A stretch of 47,104 bases of DNA from Craspedostauros australis. Lineage: Eukaryota. Where the stretch lies: positions 1 to 47,104 of the forward strand of contig JALAGF010003164.1 in the NCBI GenBank assembly GCA_030167865.1. The letters are read 5' to 3'. This document shows positions 421 through 47,104 of the stretch, one piece after another (the stretch's first letter is position 1; each line of letters begins with the position of its first letter). Below the pieces are notes generated by a model. That model was given only the letters and a program-made list of their open reading frames with translations, was not told the DNA's origin and searched no databases. A program made the translations under genes and the position numbers.

Positions 421-1118
421 GACATACACGTGCGCGTACATGTGCGCATGGAGTGGAGTGGAGTGGAGTAGAGTAGAGTACACGCCCATCCACAAATGCA
501 TGCACACATGAACGGATAAACGATTGATGGCACAGTGCTCTCAGCGATACAGGCTATGAGTATGCTGGCAGCGCAACATTCCAGCAGCCCTCGCCTCTCA
601 CAAGACAAATGCAGCCCCAAGCGCACTCATACTCTCTACTCGTAGAGCAGTAGAACACCGTGATCAGCATCTTCATGATGAATCAATCAACAATAGAGTA
701 CTCTACTATGTACTCTGGTAGCAATGGCAGCGCATGGCCTCTGTGTGTGTATCTGTGTGCATGCTGCCGTTCCTGTTTGGCAAACCATCCGTTTCCTCCA
801 CAATCTCGTGCTACGAGTGTCATGCGGATCACACCACCGACGGCATGGTCGCGAAAGTAGAAGAACTGCACGTTCTATCATGCTCGCGTTCCAAATTGGG
901 CGTCGCCCCCCAGCACTCGTACACACAAGCAGAGTGTCATCTTTGGCGTCTTCTTTCCGTGGTTGTAACACAGAGATGCCTCCGACCACGGAATTGGCGG
1001 CTCTCCTGCATTTGACAATTGGCACTCTGGGGTCCACTCATCCTTGGCGTTGCCTGCACTACCACCTCACTCTCTTCCACTCCATTCCGCGCACTACGCA
1101 TTGCATTCTGCATAATGC

Positions 1119-2492
1119 TCACTTGATGTTGCCTGTTGCTGGAACTTCCCGTTCTTCGTATTCCAGCAGGTTGGAACGCTTTCCTCCCGTGTTCAAGTAG
1201 GAAATGAGGAAGAAGAGCCCCCCATACGTCACCGCTCCTTTCAACATGCCTTGTGGTCCCTCTGTGGCGATTGTGTTACGATTGCATTCGGATTGCGCCG
1301 TCATGTTTCGTCGTCATTCGCGCATACATTCAATGCAATGCAATACAAGGAACGCGAAAGAATTGCAAATGTGAGCATGGACAACAACATACGCAACCGG
1401 AGTAATGTGGGAACGACGGCGAATGCAACGGTATGCACAAACAATAGTCAAAGGATCATCAAACGATAGTTCATCAACGACGAGAAGTTTTCTGTTGGCA
1501 GCCCAAACATCTGACTCCTCCAATCCAATGCAAATGCCGACACCTTCCACACACATACACAGACACAAACTCCCCCGCGCCGCTGGATGCAATGTGAATC
1601 CAACCGATGACTCACCCTTCCTGGCAAACCAGGCACCTGCGAGCGCGCTTGAGAAGATGGAGTTCCAGGCGTCGTTGTCCTGCTGTTGCGGACTGCGGAA
1701 CATGACGACGACGGCTTCCGATCCACCAAAGACGGCGCTGACGCTGCCCCAGCTCTTGGCCCATCGGAAGGACCTGCCGTTCATCCGCTTGAACCGGGAG
1801 GTGGATTCCTGGATGAAGCGGTTGGACATGGACGCTGCGGCTGTGGACGGCCCCGCCGTTGGATTGAAGATGAGCCCGGGCAAACCGACGATGGTGCCGA
1901 GCGTGTACGCCATGAGGAATCCCGTGGCGTATTCGAAAATAATGGTGAAGCCCACGTTCGCAACTCTGTACACAGTGCGACTGATGGGACCGAGATTGGA
2001 AAAGTCGACCTCCTCTTCGTCGGAATCGGGGTCGGTGGCAGCAGTCGGCACAGCCCTCTTTCGTTTGGCGACCTTGCCATCGCTCGCAGCAGGCTTCTTT
2101 GACTTGCGCGCCACCAGAAGGACTTCCGGCGCTGCGTTGCCGACGCCGTACCGCGACGAAGCAGCCGACGAAGTGAATCTTCTGCGTCCTCGCTGATGTC
2201 CTGTCTGTTGCCATCCTCGGGAAGATGACCCGCCGGAACCCCACTGCAGCTGCCGTTGCAACTCTTCCGATGCGCGCGTCCGTGTCAACCCGAGCACGGG
2301 GGCCGTCGTGGAGGACGCAAGCGACGCCGATCGGGCTTCGCACACCGGTATCGTCATGATGCCATGCGTGGAGAGCATCAGCAGGATGGCGAGCATGCCT
2401 CCCAACAATCCTCCCGGTCTTCTGTCTCTTGATGTCATGCGAGAGCCTGGTCTTTCGGATGATGCCTGCCGCATTCTTCCCATCATGGTCAT
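1119..2492 (-). CDS. Tim17/Tim22/Tim23 (PRAT) family translocase-like membrane protein; exons 2492-1616 and 1261-1119
   Basis: Motifs AKSWGSVSAVFGGSE and DAWNSIFSSALAGAWFARK. A GTGAGT donor at 1615 and a CAG acceptor at 1262 join in frame to EGPQGMLKGAVTYGG (877+143 nt = 340 codons). True start among several Met codons is uncertain. Confidence 0.85.
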
Positions 2493-37895: not shown

Positions 37896-39023
37896 ATGAA
37901 GGCCTGCCTCTTCTTGACATCCGCGGTGGTGGCCATGCTGCATCCAACAGCAATCACACGCACCATCGGCTGCGATGCGTTCGTTGTTCCAGCATCCATC
38001 CACGCATCGCGTCGATCTGGACATGCCATGTCTATCGCATACCCAGGTTTCAGCCAGTTAAGCGGCAGCGGCAGCGACAGTCACAATGCTAGTGATAGTG
38101 ATAGTGACGGTGAGAGAGGCAGGAATCATGTCAACGCTCCTCTGTCAAAGCCAACGCAAGCATCGCAGAAATCTCGTCGCCGGTTGTTCAATGATGCAGC
38201 TTCGATCGCTCTGGCTGCAACGCTGATGGTGCCACAGGCCGCGTCTGCCGCCACCGCAGAATCAGCAACGGCCGCAACTTTCTCCGACATCGTGCTGCGC
38301 ACCAAGAACATCCCCACGTTCTGCATCGTCACATCCGCCGGCATCCCCTACATGATCTTCAACGGCAGCGCATCTGCGACGGGATACTTCTTCCTCTCCT
38401 ACAACCTCGCTCAGCAGACTCTGCAGGATGCCATCGGCAAGGACACGTCCGAAAATGCCGCCGAATGGAAGCAGGCCAAGATCCTCGTCATCCCGCTCGC
38501 CATCTCCCTGCAGCTCGCATTGCGCAACACGCAGCGCAAGGCCGTCAACAACGGCATCCTCTTCAGCACGTACAATGACATCGTCGCGTCGGAGGAGGGC
38601 ATCAAGGACGCCAGGATCTACGAGGAGCAGCAGAAACGCGGAGCGCTCACGGGCATCACCGCCAATACCGACAAGTGGAGCCAGAAGGGACGCGTGCCCA
38701 TCTTCTCCATCGAAGGTCTCACGATCACGAAGCCCGATGGCACCGTCAAGTCTCCGCGGTACTTCAATCGCCGCGATCTCATCTCGGAATGGCTGCGGCA
38801 GCGCGGCGGCGACGAGGGGGCCGTGGAGAAGCTCATCCAGGTCACGGATCTCGTCGATCTCTTTCGCAAGTCCATCGCCAGCAACAATCTGGCCGTGTTG
38901 GATTCGATCGAGCTTGTCCCGGTGGCGGAAACCAACGAGGTGGCCAAGTCCGTGGCCAAGGCGACGCCTTCGGATCTCAGGTATAACTTCAAGGAGGTCG
39001 TCTTGGTGCAGTCGTCGAAGTAG
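37896..39023 (+). CDS. TIC22: Tic22-family plastid protein-import chaperone with plastid-targeting presequence
   Basis: NIPTFCIVTSAGIPYM, GYFFLSYNLAQQTL, ILVIPL, RVPIF, PRYFNRRDL, IQVTDL match Tic22 blocks; signal peptide ending CDA/FVVP (ASAFAP-like Phe). Confidence 0.8.
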   Translation: MKACLFLTSAVVAMLHPTAITRTIGCDAFVVPASIHASRRSGHAMSIAYPGFSQLSGSGSDSHNASDSDSDGERGRNHVNAPLSKPTQASQKSRRRLFNDAASIALAATLMVPQAASAATAESATAATFSDIVLRTKNIPTFCIVTSAGIPYMIFNGSASATGYFFLSYNLAQQTLQDAIGKDTSENAAEWKQAKILVIPLAISLQLALRNTQRKAVNNGILFSTYNDIVASEEGIKDARIYEEQQKRGALTGITANTDKWSQKGRVPIFSIEGLTITKPDGTVKSPRYFNRRDLISEWLRQRGGDEGAVEKLIQVTDLVDLFRKSIASNNLAVLDSIELVPVAETNEVAKSVAKATPSDLRYNFKEVVLVQSSK

Positions 39024-42301: not shown

Positions 42302-43411
42302 ATGAGCAAGGTTGCAACATCCGCCCGCCGATTCATGTCCACAGCGGCCAAGGTCGACTGGTGAGTCGCCGTCCTCTTCATGCCGCGATGCAGCTGGCTT
42401 TGGATCCAGCCTCGTTGCGCATCCATCGATGCTTTCGTCATGGTTCCTCCAGCGGCATTGCGGAAGCATCCTTGCTTTGAGACTCTTTCAGTTCCGCATC
42501 CTCTCGAGGCTGCTCTGCTGTCGTCGCAGATGTTGCGGGTGTCTCCATCACATCGTATCAACATCCAGGGCAGTATCCAGGGCAACAGGCCAAGTGCAGC
42601 ATCATCTTGGAGAACAACAACAACGCTCCCACAACCATGATGTTCACAAGGCTGCAATGCAATTGGGAGGAGGCATCTCTGGTTGTGGACGACGTGCCGA
42701 TCATTTTCCATCGTCCCTTTTCTTTCTCTCCACCACCATCACCTCTCTGGTTGCTCCGCCAGTTCCTCACAAACAACAGAATCTCGTCATCTCACAATTT
42801 CATCACTCCACCACTCTTTTCGCGGTTTGTTCGTATTGCTCATGTTACAATACACATCATGTCCAATCAAACATGATGCAACCAATTCAACCCAACCTCC
42901 ATTCATAATGGTGTCACTCACTCTCTCTCTGTCTGTGTTCATACATGCGCGCAGGTCCGCCGATGTGTGGAAGGCAGCACCAATTGTGGCCAACGTGAAC
43001 AAATTCCGTTCCTGGGTTGCCACCGCCGACGCGCAGGCTGAGAAGTACCAGACCGCACCAACGCCAATCGACTTCGACGGCGCCAAGTCCAAGATCCGCG
43101 ACACCGAGCTCGTCGACAAGATCCAGGCATTCTACTCCTCCGCCGCCCTTCCGGCCGAAGGACACGAGTGGGACGCTGAAGACAAGGCCAGCAAGGAGGC
43201 GCACTTCGAGCAGGTCAAGGAACAGGCTGCCCTCTACCAGGACCTCAAGGACGATATCCACAAGGAGATCGAGTTCCTCAAGTCCACCCGAACCACCGAG
43301 GACACCACCATCCACGACCTCATGTGCAACAACCCAACCATCCACGAGGAGATCGAGAACGAGATCGAGAACCGCGAATGGTTCAAGGACATTGGTTTGA
43401 ACGCCAAGTAA
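42302..43411 (+). CDS. ATP5PD: Mitochondrial ATP synthase subunit d; exons 42302-42360 and 42955-43411
   Basis: Presequence MSKVATSARRFMST..KVDW; GTGAGT donor at 42361 and CAG acceptor at 42954 give 516 nt in frame (171 aa); motifs PIDF, LVDKIQAFY, NPTIHEEIENEIENREW. Confidence 0.9.
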
Positions 43412-43442
43412 GCAGTCAGCTGGGAAGCCAGTCCAACAAATG

Positions 43443-43470
43443 GTAGGGTAGGGTAGGGTAGGGTAGGGTA
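43443..43470 (+). repeat. (GGGTA)5 pentamer repeat just 3' of the ATP synthase d stop
   Basis: Directly visible; five G3 tracts. Confidence 0.9.
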
Positions 43471-44057
43471 GAGGAGCTTACTAACGCAACGTACTCGCAC
43501 TTGTACCCAAACTCGTGCCACACTCCAATAGCAACGGCCGCGGCAATCGCTGCAATTTCGAATTAGTCAACTACCATTGTGTTATCAGTACATTCGCTTG
43601 TGTTTGCGCTTGCGCTTATTGTCAGCTGGTTGCTTCCATACTTCCTGCGGGTACTCGGAGATCCAGAGGTTGCATGATCGGCCATGCGTACTGCCGAATC
43701 CCAGTCAGCGCAGAGATGCAGACGCCCAATTCAACCTTCCTGCGTCGACGGAAGGATCTGCATGCGACGGGGGATGATGCTCTCTCGACCCTCCAGAGAG
43801 AGTGGAGTACCCAGAGTACTCTATGCCGTTTCGATCATGCCAATGTAGATACCATTGCGAGAGCATTCTCCATTCCCCATCAATTGCAGCATCACGACCA
43901 TGTCATTCAAGGTTTCATCATTGCGCCTGTTCTACTCTCTGCTGCCAAAATTTTCACTTGATCACATCTCGTTGGGATGCCAAAGAAGGAGACATCGGCA
44001 TAGTTCATGCTCTGTTCTGCCCTACCACGCTGTGTCAGGCTCAACCATCAGACTGGA

Positions 44058-44861
44058 CTACAGCTCATTCTTCCTCCTTGCCTCCTCTTCTTCTTCCTCT
44101 CGTCGCCTTCTCTGTTGCTCATCAATCTCGCGTTCACGCTGCTCCGCAAGAAGTCGCATCCTGCGCTCCAACTTGCGTTTCCGCTGATCCTCGTTGAACT
44201 TCTCCACATTCCTCCGGACCTGCTCGCGGCGTTCTCGATTCTTCTCTTCTCGTATGCGCTCCTTGCGTTCGTGCTCCGCTTGCATGGCGTCGATCACATC
44301 CTGGGGCTTGCGCTGGAATCCCAGAGAACGAAAGAGTTCGTGCAGCTTGTCGTACGAACGGAACTTGCGCAGCTCCACGACCTCGGTGGTTGTCACGGTT
44401 TTTGTTCTGGTGCTTGTAGCCCGTCGGCTGTTCTCGTTTCTGTATTCGGCGTCGGGAATGTAATCATCATCGTCTCCGATGAACTCGTCGTCGTCGTCAT
44501 CGTCGCCACCCGCGTATTGGTTGTATCCATCGTATCCATTCCCATCCATGCCCAGGTCTTCGTCGACTTCCGCCTCAACTTCCACCTCCTCTTCGTAGTA
44601 CACCGTGAGAGTGACCTTCTTCGGCCCTCCTTTGATGAACTCCGTCTCCACATTCTCCCATACGCCCAGACCGTCCCAAGCCGTGAGGTACTTCTTGAGC
44701 TTGCCGAGCGTCTTCAAGGCTCATCCCTTGCAGGATGTGATGACGCCGCGCACGAGTCGGCGGTTGCCGAGATCGAGTTCCTCATGCGCGACCACTGACG
44801 ATAGAAGTAGTAGTAGCAGCACTAGCACTTGCGACAGTATCCACTTTCCGAATCGGCTCAT
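44058..44861 (-). CDS. SELENOM/Sep15-family ER selenoprotein, 267 aa, in-frame UGA read as Sec (CKGU)
   Basis: ORFs 44721..44978 and 44058..44717 are in the same frame, separated only by TGA GCC: GVITS-C-K-G-*-ALKTLGKLKKYL. Signal peptide, EFIKGG, LHELFRSLGFQRK and C-terminal KNEL. Confidence 0.85.
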
Positions 44862-47104
44862 GGTCTTGCGTGTCGTTGTTGGTGTATTGTGCGAGTGCAA
44901 GGTGGGATCTTTTTGTCTCAGCCAGGTGTTGGTATGCGAGTATGTGCAGGCAATGTAGGTATGCGACAGTCCAGACATCCACCATGTCGCAATGTGATGA
45001 TGATGATGATGGTGATGGTGAAAGAAGAAAAGTCATTTTGATGTGTTGGGTGCAGAGCGTGACAGAAAGAGATTCCAGTCATGCAAAGAGATCATAGTAG
45101 ACGTGTGGCGTAAACTAGAGAGACAAACAGATACCAACACAAACCAAGGAGACAGACTCATCCAAACCCGCAGGAACTCAACAACGAACCCGTAGATCGG
45201 CATGATTTGATGCGTCCCTCACTCTCCTCCATCTTACGAGCTATTCCACTATAATCGTAACTGTCTTTGTCCGTTCTTGTGCTCCACGATCACTCTCTCA
45301 TCGTTGCAAGTGACCAGCCATCCATTGTTGCATAGTGGCATCGCATTACATTGCATTGCATGTAAGGAGGTCATCGCAAGAAAGGGTTCACTCATGCGTT
45401 CTCTCCAATTCTGTTTCTGGATCATACGACACTTCCGCGGATGGCTGTCCTGCACCCGTGAGAAGATTGCACACGAGCGAGGACCGCAACAACGAAATGA
45501 ACTGAGCAGACAAACCACAACCTTGTGGAGGCGACCAACACGACATCGGTGGCCACTTGAACCTTGCAGCGGTACTCGTACCGCTGTTTGGCATCCTCCG
45601 CCCACGGGCTCCTGGCGCAGATCGTAGACCATCTTTTGTCCATCGCCCTACACGCGCTGATGTACTCTATGGAACCCAGTCCACGACACACGCATAAGAG
45701 CAATGATTGTGCATTGACGACAACAAGCCGAGGGCAAGGTTGGGAACATTGGTTCGATCACACTTTCACGATCACCACCTCAAACATGGAACATGCTCTG
45801 TACCGATGTTCAAGGAGAATCTCGTTGGTGAGGGCACACGATGTCAGACGATCGAAGTCAATTGTTGCTCCAGTTCAGCTCCAACCCAAATTCAAGTTCC
45901 ATTTCCGATTCAAATGAGATGACTTCAAGCTCTGTCCTCGTAGGTACGCTTGCCATGGTCGAGCTGCGAAGTCGCGAAGCAGCGAACACAAGTCTCAGGA
46001 GCGAAAGAGTGATCGTAGCGAACGAATGAAGAGAGGGAGGAGGCTGTGAAATGATCGCTTGTGACGCTGTTGCCTTTGAGTGAGGCGAGGCGGCCTGAAA
46101 GGAGGGCAACTGGGATAGTCGTACATTGAAGTAGACGGGGCGACCGCAATGGTGATCGCCTCTTCTAATCATGAAACAGAAAACGAGCCCGCAGATCGAT
46201 GTCGCCAGTATGATCACGCTTGTAATGTTCACAGCATGGCGTAGAAAGATCATGCGTACTCCACCAAGGCAAAAACGTTGGACCATTGTTTCGATCACGT
46301 TGATGCGAATGTGTTGGATCACTCTTCCTTGGTTGCCTCCTCGCCTACTTCCTTCTGCGTCGCTATTGTGTTCATTGAAGCAGTTTGAAGAGCATTTCCA
46401 AGACCACCAAGAGAGAGGGAGGGAGAGAGAACAGCGCAGACTCTACTCGTACTACCATCGTTCACTACGTATTCCTGCCAAGCTGCATTGCATCATCTGC
46501 ATCCATAATCTGTTTCAGACAAGCATGAAGGAAGCAAGCGACAACGAGACATAGATCTACAGTACGAGCACGAGTACGAAGACGAGTCCGAGTACGCAAC
46601 GAGCGAAAACCAAGTTCGCCCAGCCAAGAAGGAAGGAGGAAGGGAAGATAGATGTGGAATAACAACATCACGATGCTCGCATACTCGTACAAGAACATTC
46701 ACGGCCACGATAGTTGAATCTGGAGGATTCACATGTTGCATAGGAGAGTAGTGCGGCATGAATATCCATGAGGACAGATTCTGTCTGGGGAGACCAAAAA
46801 TGGCCATTTTGGGCTCAGGAGACAAAGTTACCCGGAGGTTCGCCAAAATCCGGTCTGAGGAGACAATTTTCAGTTCCACGTGATAAATCTCCACAATAGG
46901 ATTTTGCGGTCGAATACTTCGACTAAAAGAAACTCTACCAGCTCTTCGTTCTGACATCTTCTCCTCCAAGATTTTCTTCATCGTCATTGTTTCTTCGCTT
47001 TCCTCCAGATGGCAACAACCCTCTCTCTCCAACCTCCTTGCCTGCTGTGGTTCATTTCATTCCATCACCAACCTCGCACCTCCTTGCTTGTCATTCGCAG
47101 CATC

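Follow-up and report, generated by a model that had tools for sequence, protein, structure and literature searches.

SELENOM is a selenoprotein of the Sep15_SelM family (PF08806; structure 2a2p) that combines a signal peptide, a minimal thioredoxin-like fold with a CxxU motif (U, selenocysteine, Sec) between strand 1 and helix 1, a GFxRK sequence that closes the domain, and a C-terminus of the endoplasmic reticulum (ER) retrieval type. We analyzed a 47,104-nucleotide stretch of DNA from the diatom Craspedostauros australis (contig JALAGF010003164.1, positions 1 to 47,104; hereafter the window), whose minus strand carries a gene with these features (the signal peptide and the retrieval signal as predicted) and one in-frame TGA, which we hold with high confidence to be a Sec gene of the SELENOM family. 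The window protein differs from SELENOM in having CKGU in place of CGGU, a 71-amino acid (aa) insert where the human protein has about 5 residues, a predicted helix of about 80 residues ahead of the last four residues, and a length of 267 aa as opposed to 145 aa. SELENOF (Sep15; 2a4h) shares the Pfam family and the fold (Z 7.2). SELENOF has an N-terminal Cys-rich UGGT-binding region and a CxU motif, whereas the window protein has CxxU and one Cys in total.

SelM genes are already known from diatoms. Thalassiosira pseudonana has two, SelM1 and SelM2; in a published alignment of them with human and algal SelM, U occupies this site, and where the insert would fall the human sequence has about five residues (PMC2375036). 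The T. pseudonana proteins carry IESCSGU and share their sequence style through strand 3 with two relatives of the window protein, P0004 and P0006, and past strand 3 the published SelM1 model is K/E/R-rich, like the window protein (PMC2375036). As printed there, the T. pseudonana models are about 120-145 aa long, have no recognizable GFxRK end or xEL, and may be incomplete (PMC2375036). Algal SELENOM fusions are described with pVHL in Aureococcus and with ShKT in Emiliania; these gain folded domains, whereas the window protein gains a low-complexity helix and, internally, a longer hairpin (PMC7539508). In titles and abstract openings, with the subscription literature largely outside this scope, we found no description of a long-insert diatom SELENOM or of a long diatom Sec insertion sequence (SECIS) element without AA, and nothing relevant in PMC10778597. 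Within the known diatom SelM, the protein has a new architecture and adds a subfamily marked by its internal extension and long helix.

In animal work the length of helix 2 and the apical AA count as invariant features of a SECIS. In human elements, assayed as 103-nucleotide (nt) fragments, helix 2 has 14-15 base pairs (bp) and an AA or CC motif is present (PMC2761289), and SECISearch3 filters out elements with an over-long loop or helix (PMC3753652). Long mini-stems are described in type II elements of Ostreococcus, Chlamydomonas and the Dictyostelium deiodinase (PMC2375036). A long hairpin downstream of the window gene resembles these in its helix I, internal loop, AUGA/GA core, helix II and lengthened apical part (PMC2375036). 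The Dictyostelium elements keep AAA (PMC2375036), whereas the window hairpin has no apical AA, and a multibranch apical part of about 155-180 nt and nested cores set it apart from the type II elements (the Ostreococcus stems being compared without lengths).

The reading frame and its family

Translation of the minus strand from 44861 to 44058 with TGA read as U yields 267 aa and a TAG stop. The sole in-frame TGA is codon 47 (44723-44721), three codons past Cys44, and 220 codons follow it up to a C-terminal KNEL. This retranslation agrees with the original prediction, made from the sequence by eye, and the xLxxL after U47 and the C-terminal LGFxRK motif (here LGFQRK) that it named are both present. 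No in-frame GTR..YAG intron of 45-300 nt able to remove the TGA was found. The 11-residue Kyte-Doolittle maximum (3.07) lies at residue 14 and values are at most 0.5 past residue 40; with the only hydrophobic stretch at the N-terminus and with KNEL, which matches the PROSITE ER retrieval pattern [KRHQSA][DENQ]EL, the protein would be placed in the ER lumen, as predicted. The expected misannotation by gene callers is also borne out, as the database product P0002 is truncated and starts at residue 49. P0002 and P0007 start past the TGA, at TTG or GTG codons, and because their contigs may not be transcripts they were not used as evidence for TGA retention.

A match to the Sep15_SelM model had been proposed as a check, and it holds for the relatives of the window protein and not for the protein itself. 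Searched alone, the window protein has no Pfam hit, and its residues 1-91 reach only E 0.22 against Sep15_SelM (PF08806), which counts against the family assignment. P0003, a paralog in the same genome that is 31% identical, carries CRGU at the aligned position; its score of 45.8 bits lies above the cut-off of 26, which P0004 and P0006 exceed as well. P0004, a homolog of 260 aa, has Cys at the Sec position and the same architecture as the window protein. Homologs have Sec or Cys at the position of the TGA, with TGA in two paralogs, Cys in P0004, L014 and L015, and U in T. pseudonana and human SelM. A profile of P0001 (the window protein), P0003, P0004 and P0006 had mouse SelM (2a2p) as its sole hit below E 0.05 among 11 listed (E 3.2e-6), the match being split into two pieces by the insert, and hhalign gave a probability of 97.8 for the Sep15/SelM relationship. 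The TGA in paralogs, the Cys in the homolog, and the ranking of 2a2p first by both profile and fold comparison uphold the predicted membership in the SELENOM family with Sec at the TGA.

Relatives are few. A search of 1.84 billion representatives returned four proteins: P0002 (the gene's own truncated product), P0004, the fragment P0006, and P0005, an unrelated repeat protein that matched via its acidic residues and was dropped. Further homolog searches found only the query or its own product, in one case together with the paralog's truncated product (in a search limited to 8000 candidates). A metagenome scan found two short canonical Cys SelM genes; no ortholog 3′ untranslated region (UTR) was obtained because the scan pattern cannot match TGA. 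The second paralog, L005, has by eye a C-terminal hydrophobic or transmembrane helix in place of an xDEL signal.

The genome encodes tRNA-Sec (76.6 bits, UCA anticodon), SecS (E 8.5e-70) and an SBP2 homolog (E 1.7e-17 to 7zjw_B). An in-frame TGA at the expected site was also found in genes that we take, from Pfam family and known motifs, to be SelT, two GPx, MsrA, two SelU-like genes and one PDI. A sequence contig from run X1 (depth 238) matches 42954-44658 with zero gaps or differences and covers the insert, the tail and the 3′ region. It skips a 594-nt GT..AG intron of the neighboring gene and therefore probably comes from spliced RNA. Runs X2 and X3 hold almost nothing, and the uncovered 44659-44861 is no evidence in either direction.

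SECIS-like hairpins and a shared core

The original prediction saw no canonical SECIS in 43412-44057 and suggested a non-canonical one. Rfam likewise gave no SECIS match in this 3′ region, nor in six other Sec loci and one Cys locus; as Rfam is blind to all seven Sec loci scanned, the absence is uninformative. The non-canonical element is probably the long hairpin at 43929-43719 (Table 1), which folding and comparison with other Sec genes lead us to regard, with reasonable confidence, as the SECIS of the SELENOM gene. It folds at −78.6 kcal/mol (z −2.25; 4 of 200 shuffles equally stable). The outer of its two cores has five Watson-Crick closing pairs and a helix pair probability of 0.95-0.97, is left with GA/GA unpaired and in register by the unconstrained fold, and fits the published UGAN/KGAW consensus (PMC3753652). 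The cores are nested, the helix I of the inner core being the helix II of the outer. Inner helix II has about 13 bp with mismatches and bulges, short of the canonical 14-15 bp helix 2 with AA or CC, and both cores lack an unpaired AA within 20 nt. Another candidate spotted by eye, with its core at 43921 and the partner at 43894, had 3 of 10 pairs in register and was rejected.

Five other Sec genes that we compared have a common GA-AUGAC 5′ core, with the 3′ partner up to 119 nt off. Initial loose scans with a core spacing of at most 65 or 140 nt favored a short hairpin directly behind the long one and were blind to the long one itself, which came to light at wider spacing. We then scored the loci by a strict rule (AUGAN, at least 5 pairs in register, U-GA, 25-260 nt), which recovered 6/6 training genes and 4/5 held-out loci; one of the latter, L065, is a broken near-copy of L061, and the independent held-out score is therefore 3/4. 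The strict rule also picked 5 of 39 control genes, all with a helix probability of 0.0, compared with 0.55-0.95 in the Sec genes. A relaxed rule that requires a pair probability of at least 0.5 recovered 9/10 Sec genes (SelT was missed) versus 1/39 controls, and 2 of 128 background tiles of the window, none of them long or nested. Of 57 loci tabulated, 8 were excluded for having less than 700 nt downstream and 2 as identical L028 copies; the control regions begin at the first in-frame stop, which is possibly intronic. The apparent TGAs of L063 and L067 seem to lie inside intron sequence, and these two loci were dropped as Sec genes and used as controls.

The GA-AUGAC 5′ context is present in 9/10 Sec genes examined, and with 3435 occurrences of GAATGACR counted along one strand (65.9 Mb), 0.034 would be expected per 646 nt. 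Core-to-core distances in the ten Sec genes are 27 (L028), 33, 40, 49, 65, 72, 82, 109, 119, and 159 or 185 nt, the last two being the alternatives for the window gene. Within 20 nt of the core, 2/10 of these genes have an unpaired AA, at about the canonical spacing in 1. The 119-nt core is that of paralog L002, which has a second candidate of 62 nt with U replacing A; the 3′ region of L005 holds two adjacent SECIS-like cores.

Based on these elements, we tentatively propose, as a nearly even call, a core-only SECIS grammar in this genome: a GA-AUGAC/NGAN kink-turn, a closure of at least 5 bp, a free apical length of 27-185 nt and no required AA. The window element would be its extreme case, and the nested cores could each bind SBP2. 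The protein result is modest, and the RNA element matters more: with ten elements of one genome ranging over 27-185 nt, mostly without AA, the role of the SECIS apical part would become testable in a reporter. If the core-only grammar is true, this lineage can do without the apical adenosines that are considered essential in animals, diatom selenoproteomes (the long SELENOM subfamily included) are under-counted by searches based on SECIS, and a better search rule for hidden algal selenoproteins would follow.

The insert, the helical tail and rival readings

The insert between VTLTVYY and VVELRKF, predicted as roughly 70 residues rich in Asp and Glu, has 71 aa, 37% Asp/Glu and a net charge of −21. 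The long E/R-rich tail is also as described: 82 aa follow GFQRK, 63% of them charged, with 25 i/i+4 opposite-charge pairs and a best a/d heptad hydrophobic fraction of 0.25. Such a charge-pair pattern is generally read as a single alpha helix, which the tail sequence fits better than a coiled coil.

An AlphaFold model of the mature chain, built on an alignment of six rows of which two are canonical SelM, has a mean predicted local distance difference test (pLDDT) score of 78.9 and contains the SELENOM elements, with CxxU between E11-18 and H23-26 (the strand 1/helix 1 junction). Strands 59-71 and 126-138 flank about 54 residues of pLDDT about 50, which are probably disordered, and one helix spans 162-241. 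Both structure searches ranked 2a2p first, Foldseek at E 0.048 (nothing reached E 0.001) and VIA-align at Z 8.4 and a root mean square deviation of 3.5, with 88 residues aligned over model 8-167, across the insert. Together with the published SelM alignment, the model locates the insert at the SELENOM hairpin loop, as the original prediction had it. P0003, modeled without animal rows, has the same lengthened strands and an 82-residue helix. The insert site and the long tail are common to P0001, P0003 and P0004, with inserts of 71, 46 and 22 aa and 37%, 20% and 9% Asp/Glu, respectively. Judged from these sequences, the insert-plus-helix architecture is a trait of a small subfamily, and we infer that the acidic tip is a paralog-specific disordered loop.

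We favor, with good confidence, the reading that this is an expressed diatom SELENOM selenoprotein gene, recoded via the long hairpin and encoding an ER redox protein with added parts that might serve docking or spacing. About 800 nt past the UGA, SBP2 would bind the outer kink-turn core, the inner one or both and direct Sec insertion at codon 47, the long apical part being tolerated and an apical AA unused. The protein would enter the ER and be retrieved by KNEL, and C44/U47 may reduce or isomerize disulfides of secretory clients, by analogy with what is proposed for SELENOM (PMC10668967). In a thioredoxin topology the lengthened hairpin faces away from the active site, which makes docking or spacing likelier than catalysis. 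The hairpin extension and the charged helix of about 80 residues might form a docking surface and a rigid spacer opposite the active site, a role that we put forward with some doubt.

Several observations weigh against this reading. The X1 contig ends 63 nt short of the TGA, its strand is not inferable and it comes from a single study; X1 is not on record as RNA, its RNA origin being a guess, and the TGA lies outside all RNA reads and contigs. The machinery search covered three components, tRNA-Sec, SecS and SBP2. In the VIA-align comparison the SelM score is near the noise level quoted by the tool, with unrelated long helices at Z 7.6, less than one Z below it, and the alignment behind the first model included the two canonical SelM rows. 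Outer helix II has only 5 bp, and the inner 3′ core deviates from KGAW. When the full 646-nt spacer is folded at 37 °C, the hairpin has a probability of 0.11-0.14 and loses to pairings of more than 400 nt; at 10 °C the probability is 0.68, and the outer helix is at least 0.63 in 9/11 trial 3′ ends and whenever the pair span is capped at 400 nt, the hairpin being lost in the other 2/11. Both the strict and the relaxed rule were fixed post hoc, with the candidates already seen, and among shuffled versions of the window 3′ region 52/300 pass the strict rule, 8/300 with fold support. No ortholog DNA was found for covariation of the long hairpin.

The context dependence of the long hairpin leaves room for a Sec-recoded SELENOM in which it is incidental and recoding depends on the short hairpin at 43708-43654 or on some undetected element. 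The short hairpin is of canonical size, has strong helices (−25.7 kcal/mol when folded with its flanks), carries a mini-stem like that of type II elements, and keeps most of its helix at a probability of 0.72-0.96 in four of the folds tried. However, C replaces A before its UGA, a one-base bulge breaks the core register and it has no AA, whereas the other Sec genes have A-UGA cores in register in 9/9 cases and GA-AUGAC in 8/9, as in the inner core of the long hairpin; we therefore consider this alternative unlikely. Should the TGA instead be a genuine stop, a fixed nonsense mutation or an error of sequencing, there would be no product, or only the 163-aa frame from Met106. The TGA without RNA cover, the lack of an Rfam SECIS, the divergence from the Pfam model and the broken gene copies in this genome (e.g., L065) would all suit such an explanation. 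Yet the TGA sits exactly at the family Sec/Cys site and recurs in two paralogs, the 220 downstream codons are intact with depth 238 cover and the KNEL end, and Rfam misses six other Sec loci too, which leaves a dead TGA highly improbable.

A third alternative concerns the SELENOM protein itself, in which the acidic insert would be a dedicated Ca2+ buffer or sensor that ties the redox site to calcium in the ER. Low-affinity Ca2+ binding is a property of acidic ER segments such as those of calreticulin. The net charge of −21 in 71 aa fits such a role, Asp runs of at least 5 occur in just 1 of 15 long ATG frames of the window, and mammalian SELENOM is linked to Ca2+ homeostasis (PMC10668967). Against this, none of three EF-hand-type patterns matched the window protein, nor was there a Pfam hit, and the acidic loop is of low confidence in the model. 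The equivalent inserts of P0003 and P0004 are not acidic, and calcium binding is therefore unsupported; the added Ca2+-binding region of the original prediction is not sustained, and we judge the buffer or sensor role quite unlikely.

Features, neighboring genes and other Sec loci

Table 1. Features of the SELENOM locus and of related Sec genes. Positions are those of the window unless a contig is named; roles are predicted from the evidence in the last column.
Feature	Position	Strand	Basis
Coding sequence, 267 aa, Sec at codon 47, intron unnecessary; TAG at 44060-44058	44058..44861	-	Translation, intron scan, gap-free contig 42954-44658
Signal peptide, about residues 1-25	44787..44861	-	Hydropathy; cleavage site judged by eye
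CxxU redox motif, C44-K-G-U47; TGA 44723-44721	44721..44732	-	TGA in paralogs L002 and L005, Cys in P0004 at the same position
SELENOM thioredoxin-like domain, N-terminal half, residues 35-89	44595..44759	-	Profile and fold comparisons
71-aa insert, residues 90-160; extends the beta-hairpin at both ends, about 54 low-confidence acidic tip residues	44382..44594	-	Composition, predicted model
SELENOM domain, C-terminal half, VVELRK to GFQRK, residues 161-185	44307..44381	-	Second profile piece aligns to 2a2p 70-98; fold alignment spans model 8-167
Charged tail, predicted single helix of about 80 residues	44073..44306	-	Model H162-241, pLDDT 94-98 over most
KNEL, KDEL-type ER retrieval signal	44061..44072	-	Match to retrieval pattern
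Long SECIS-like hairpin, 211 nt; helix I, 43929-43923 with 43725-43719	43719..43929	-	Folding
Outer core, A-UGAA 43918-43914 with UGAA 43733-43730, 185 nt core to core	43730..43918	-	Folding, consensus
Inner core, GA-AUGAC 43908-43902 with CGAC 43747-43744, 159 nt core to core	43744..43908	-	Pair probability 0.75
Alternative short hairpin, C-UGAC and CGAG	43654..43708	-	Directly behind the long hairpin
SELENOM paralog (L002): CRGU, 46-aa insert, 82-residue helix, SCEL end	G000:C4487, 1003-1818	-	
SELENOM paralog (L005): two exons, CGGU, insert-free	G000:C1338, about 961-1788	-	Read by eye across one intron
Presumed SelT, two GPx, MsrA, two SelU-like and one PDI (L006, L012, L013, L022, L027, L028, L061)			In-register AUGA/GA core in each

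Convergent with the SELENOM gene lies a mitochondrial ATP synthase subunit d gene (PF05873; 42058-43411, plus strand). Its long ATG frame from 42842 is not the true start because of the 594-nt intron at about 42360-42953. One RNA-like contig passes through this gene and extends into the SELENOM gene, which suggests that their 3′ UTRs overlap. Simple repeats occur at 43434-43481 (a 5-base unit, in the spacer between both stops) and at 44987-45031 (CAT, upstream of the gene). A 375-aa frame at 37896-39023 (plus strand) has by eye a bipartite plastid-targeting-like start and no Pfam hit.

Elsewhere in the genome, at L008 1501-1940 (minus strand, G000:C6529), the tRNA-Sec gene lies 62 nt downstream of an RNase MRP RNA gene on the same strand, and the two possibly share one transcript. 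One SelU-like gene is present in three copies (L028, L029 and L030), identical across the printed protein stretch, and the Sec PDI L061 has a near-copy, L065, that carries an in-frame TAG; in both cases the copies are either duplications or assembly redundancy. The silicon transporter family, by which the genome is taken as that of a diatom, gave 92 matches over many contigs, an unusually large set in which many are partial or contain stops.
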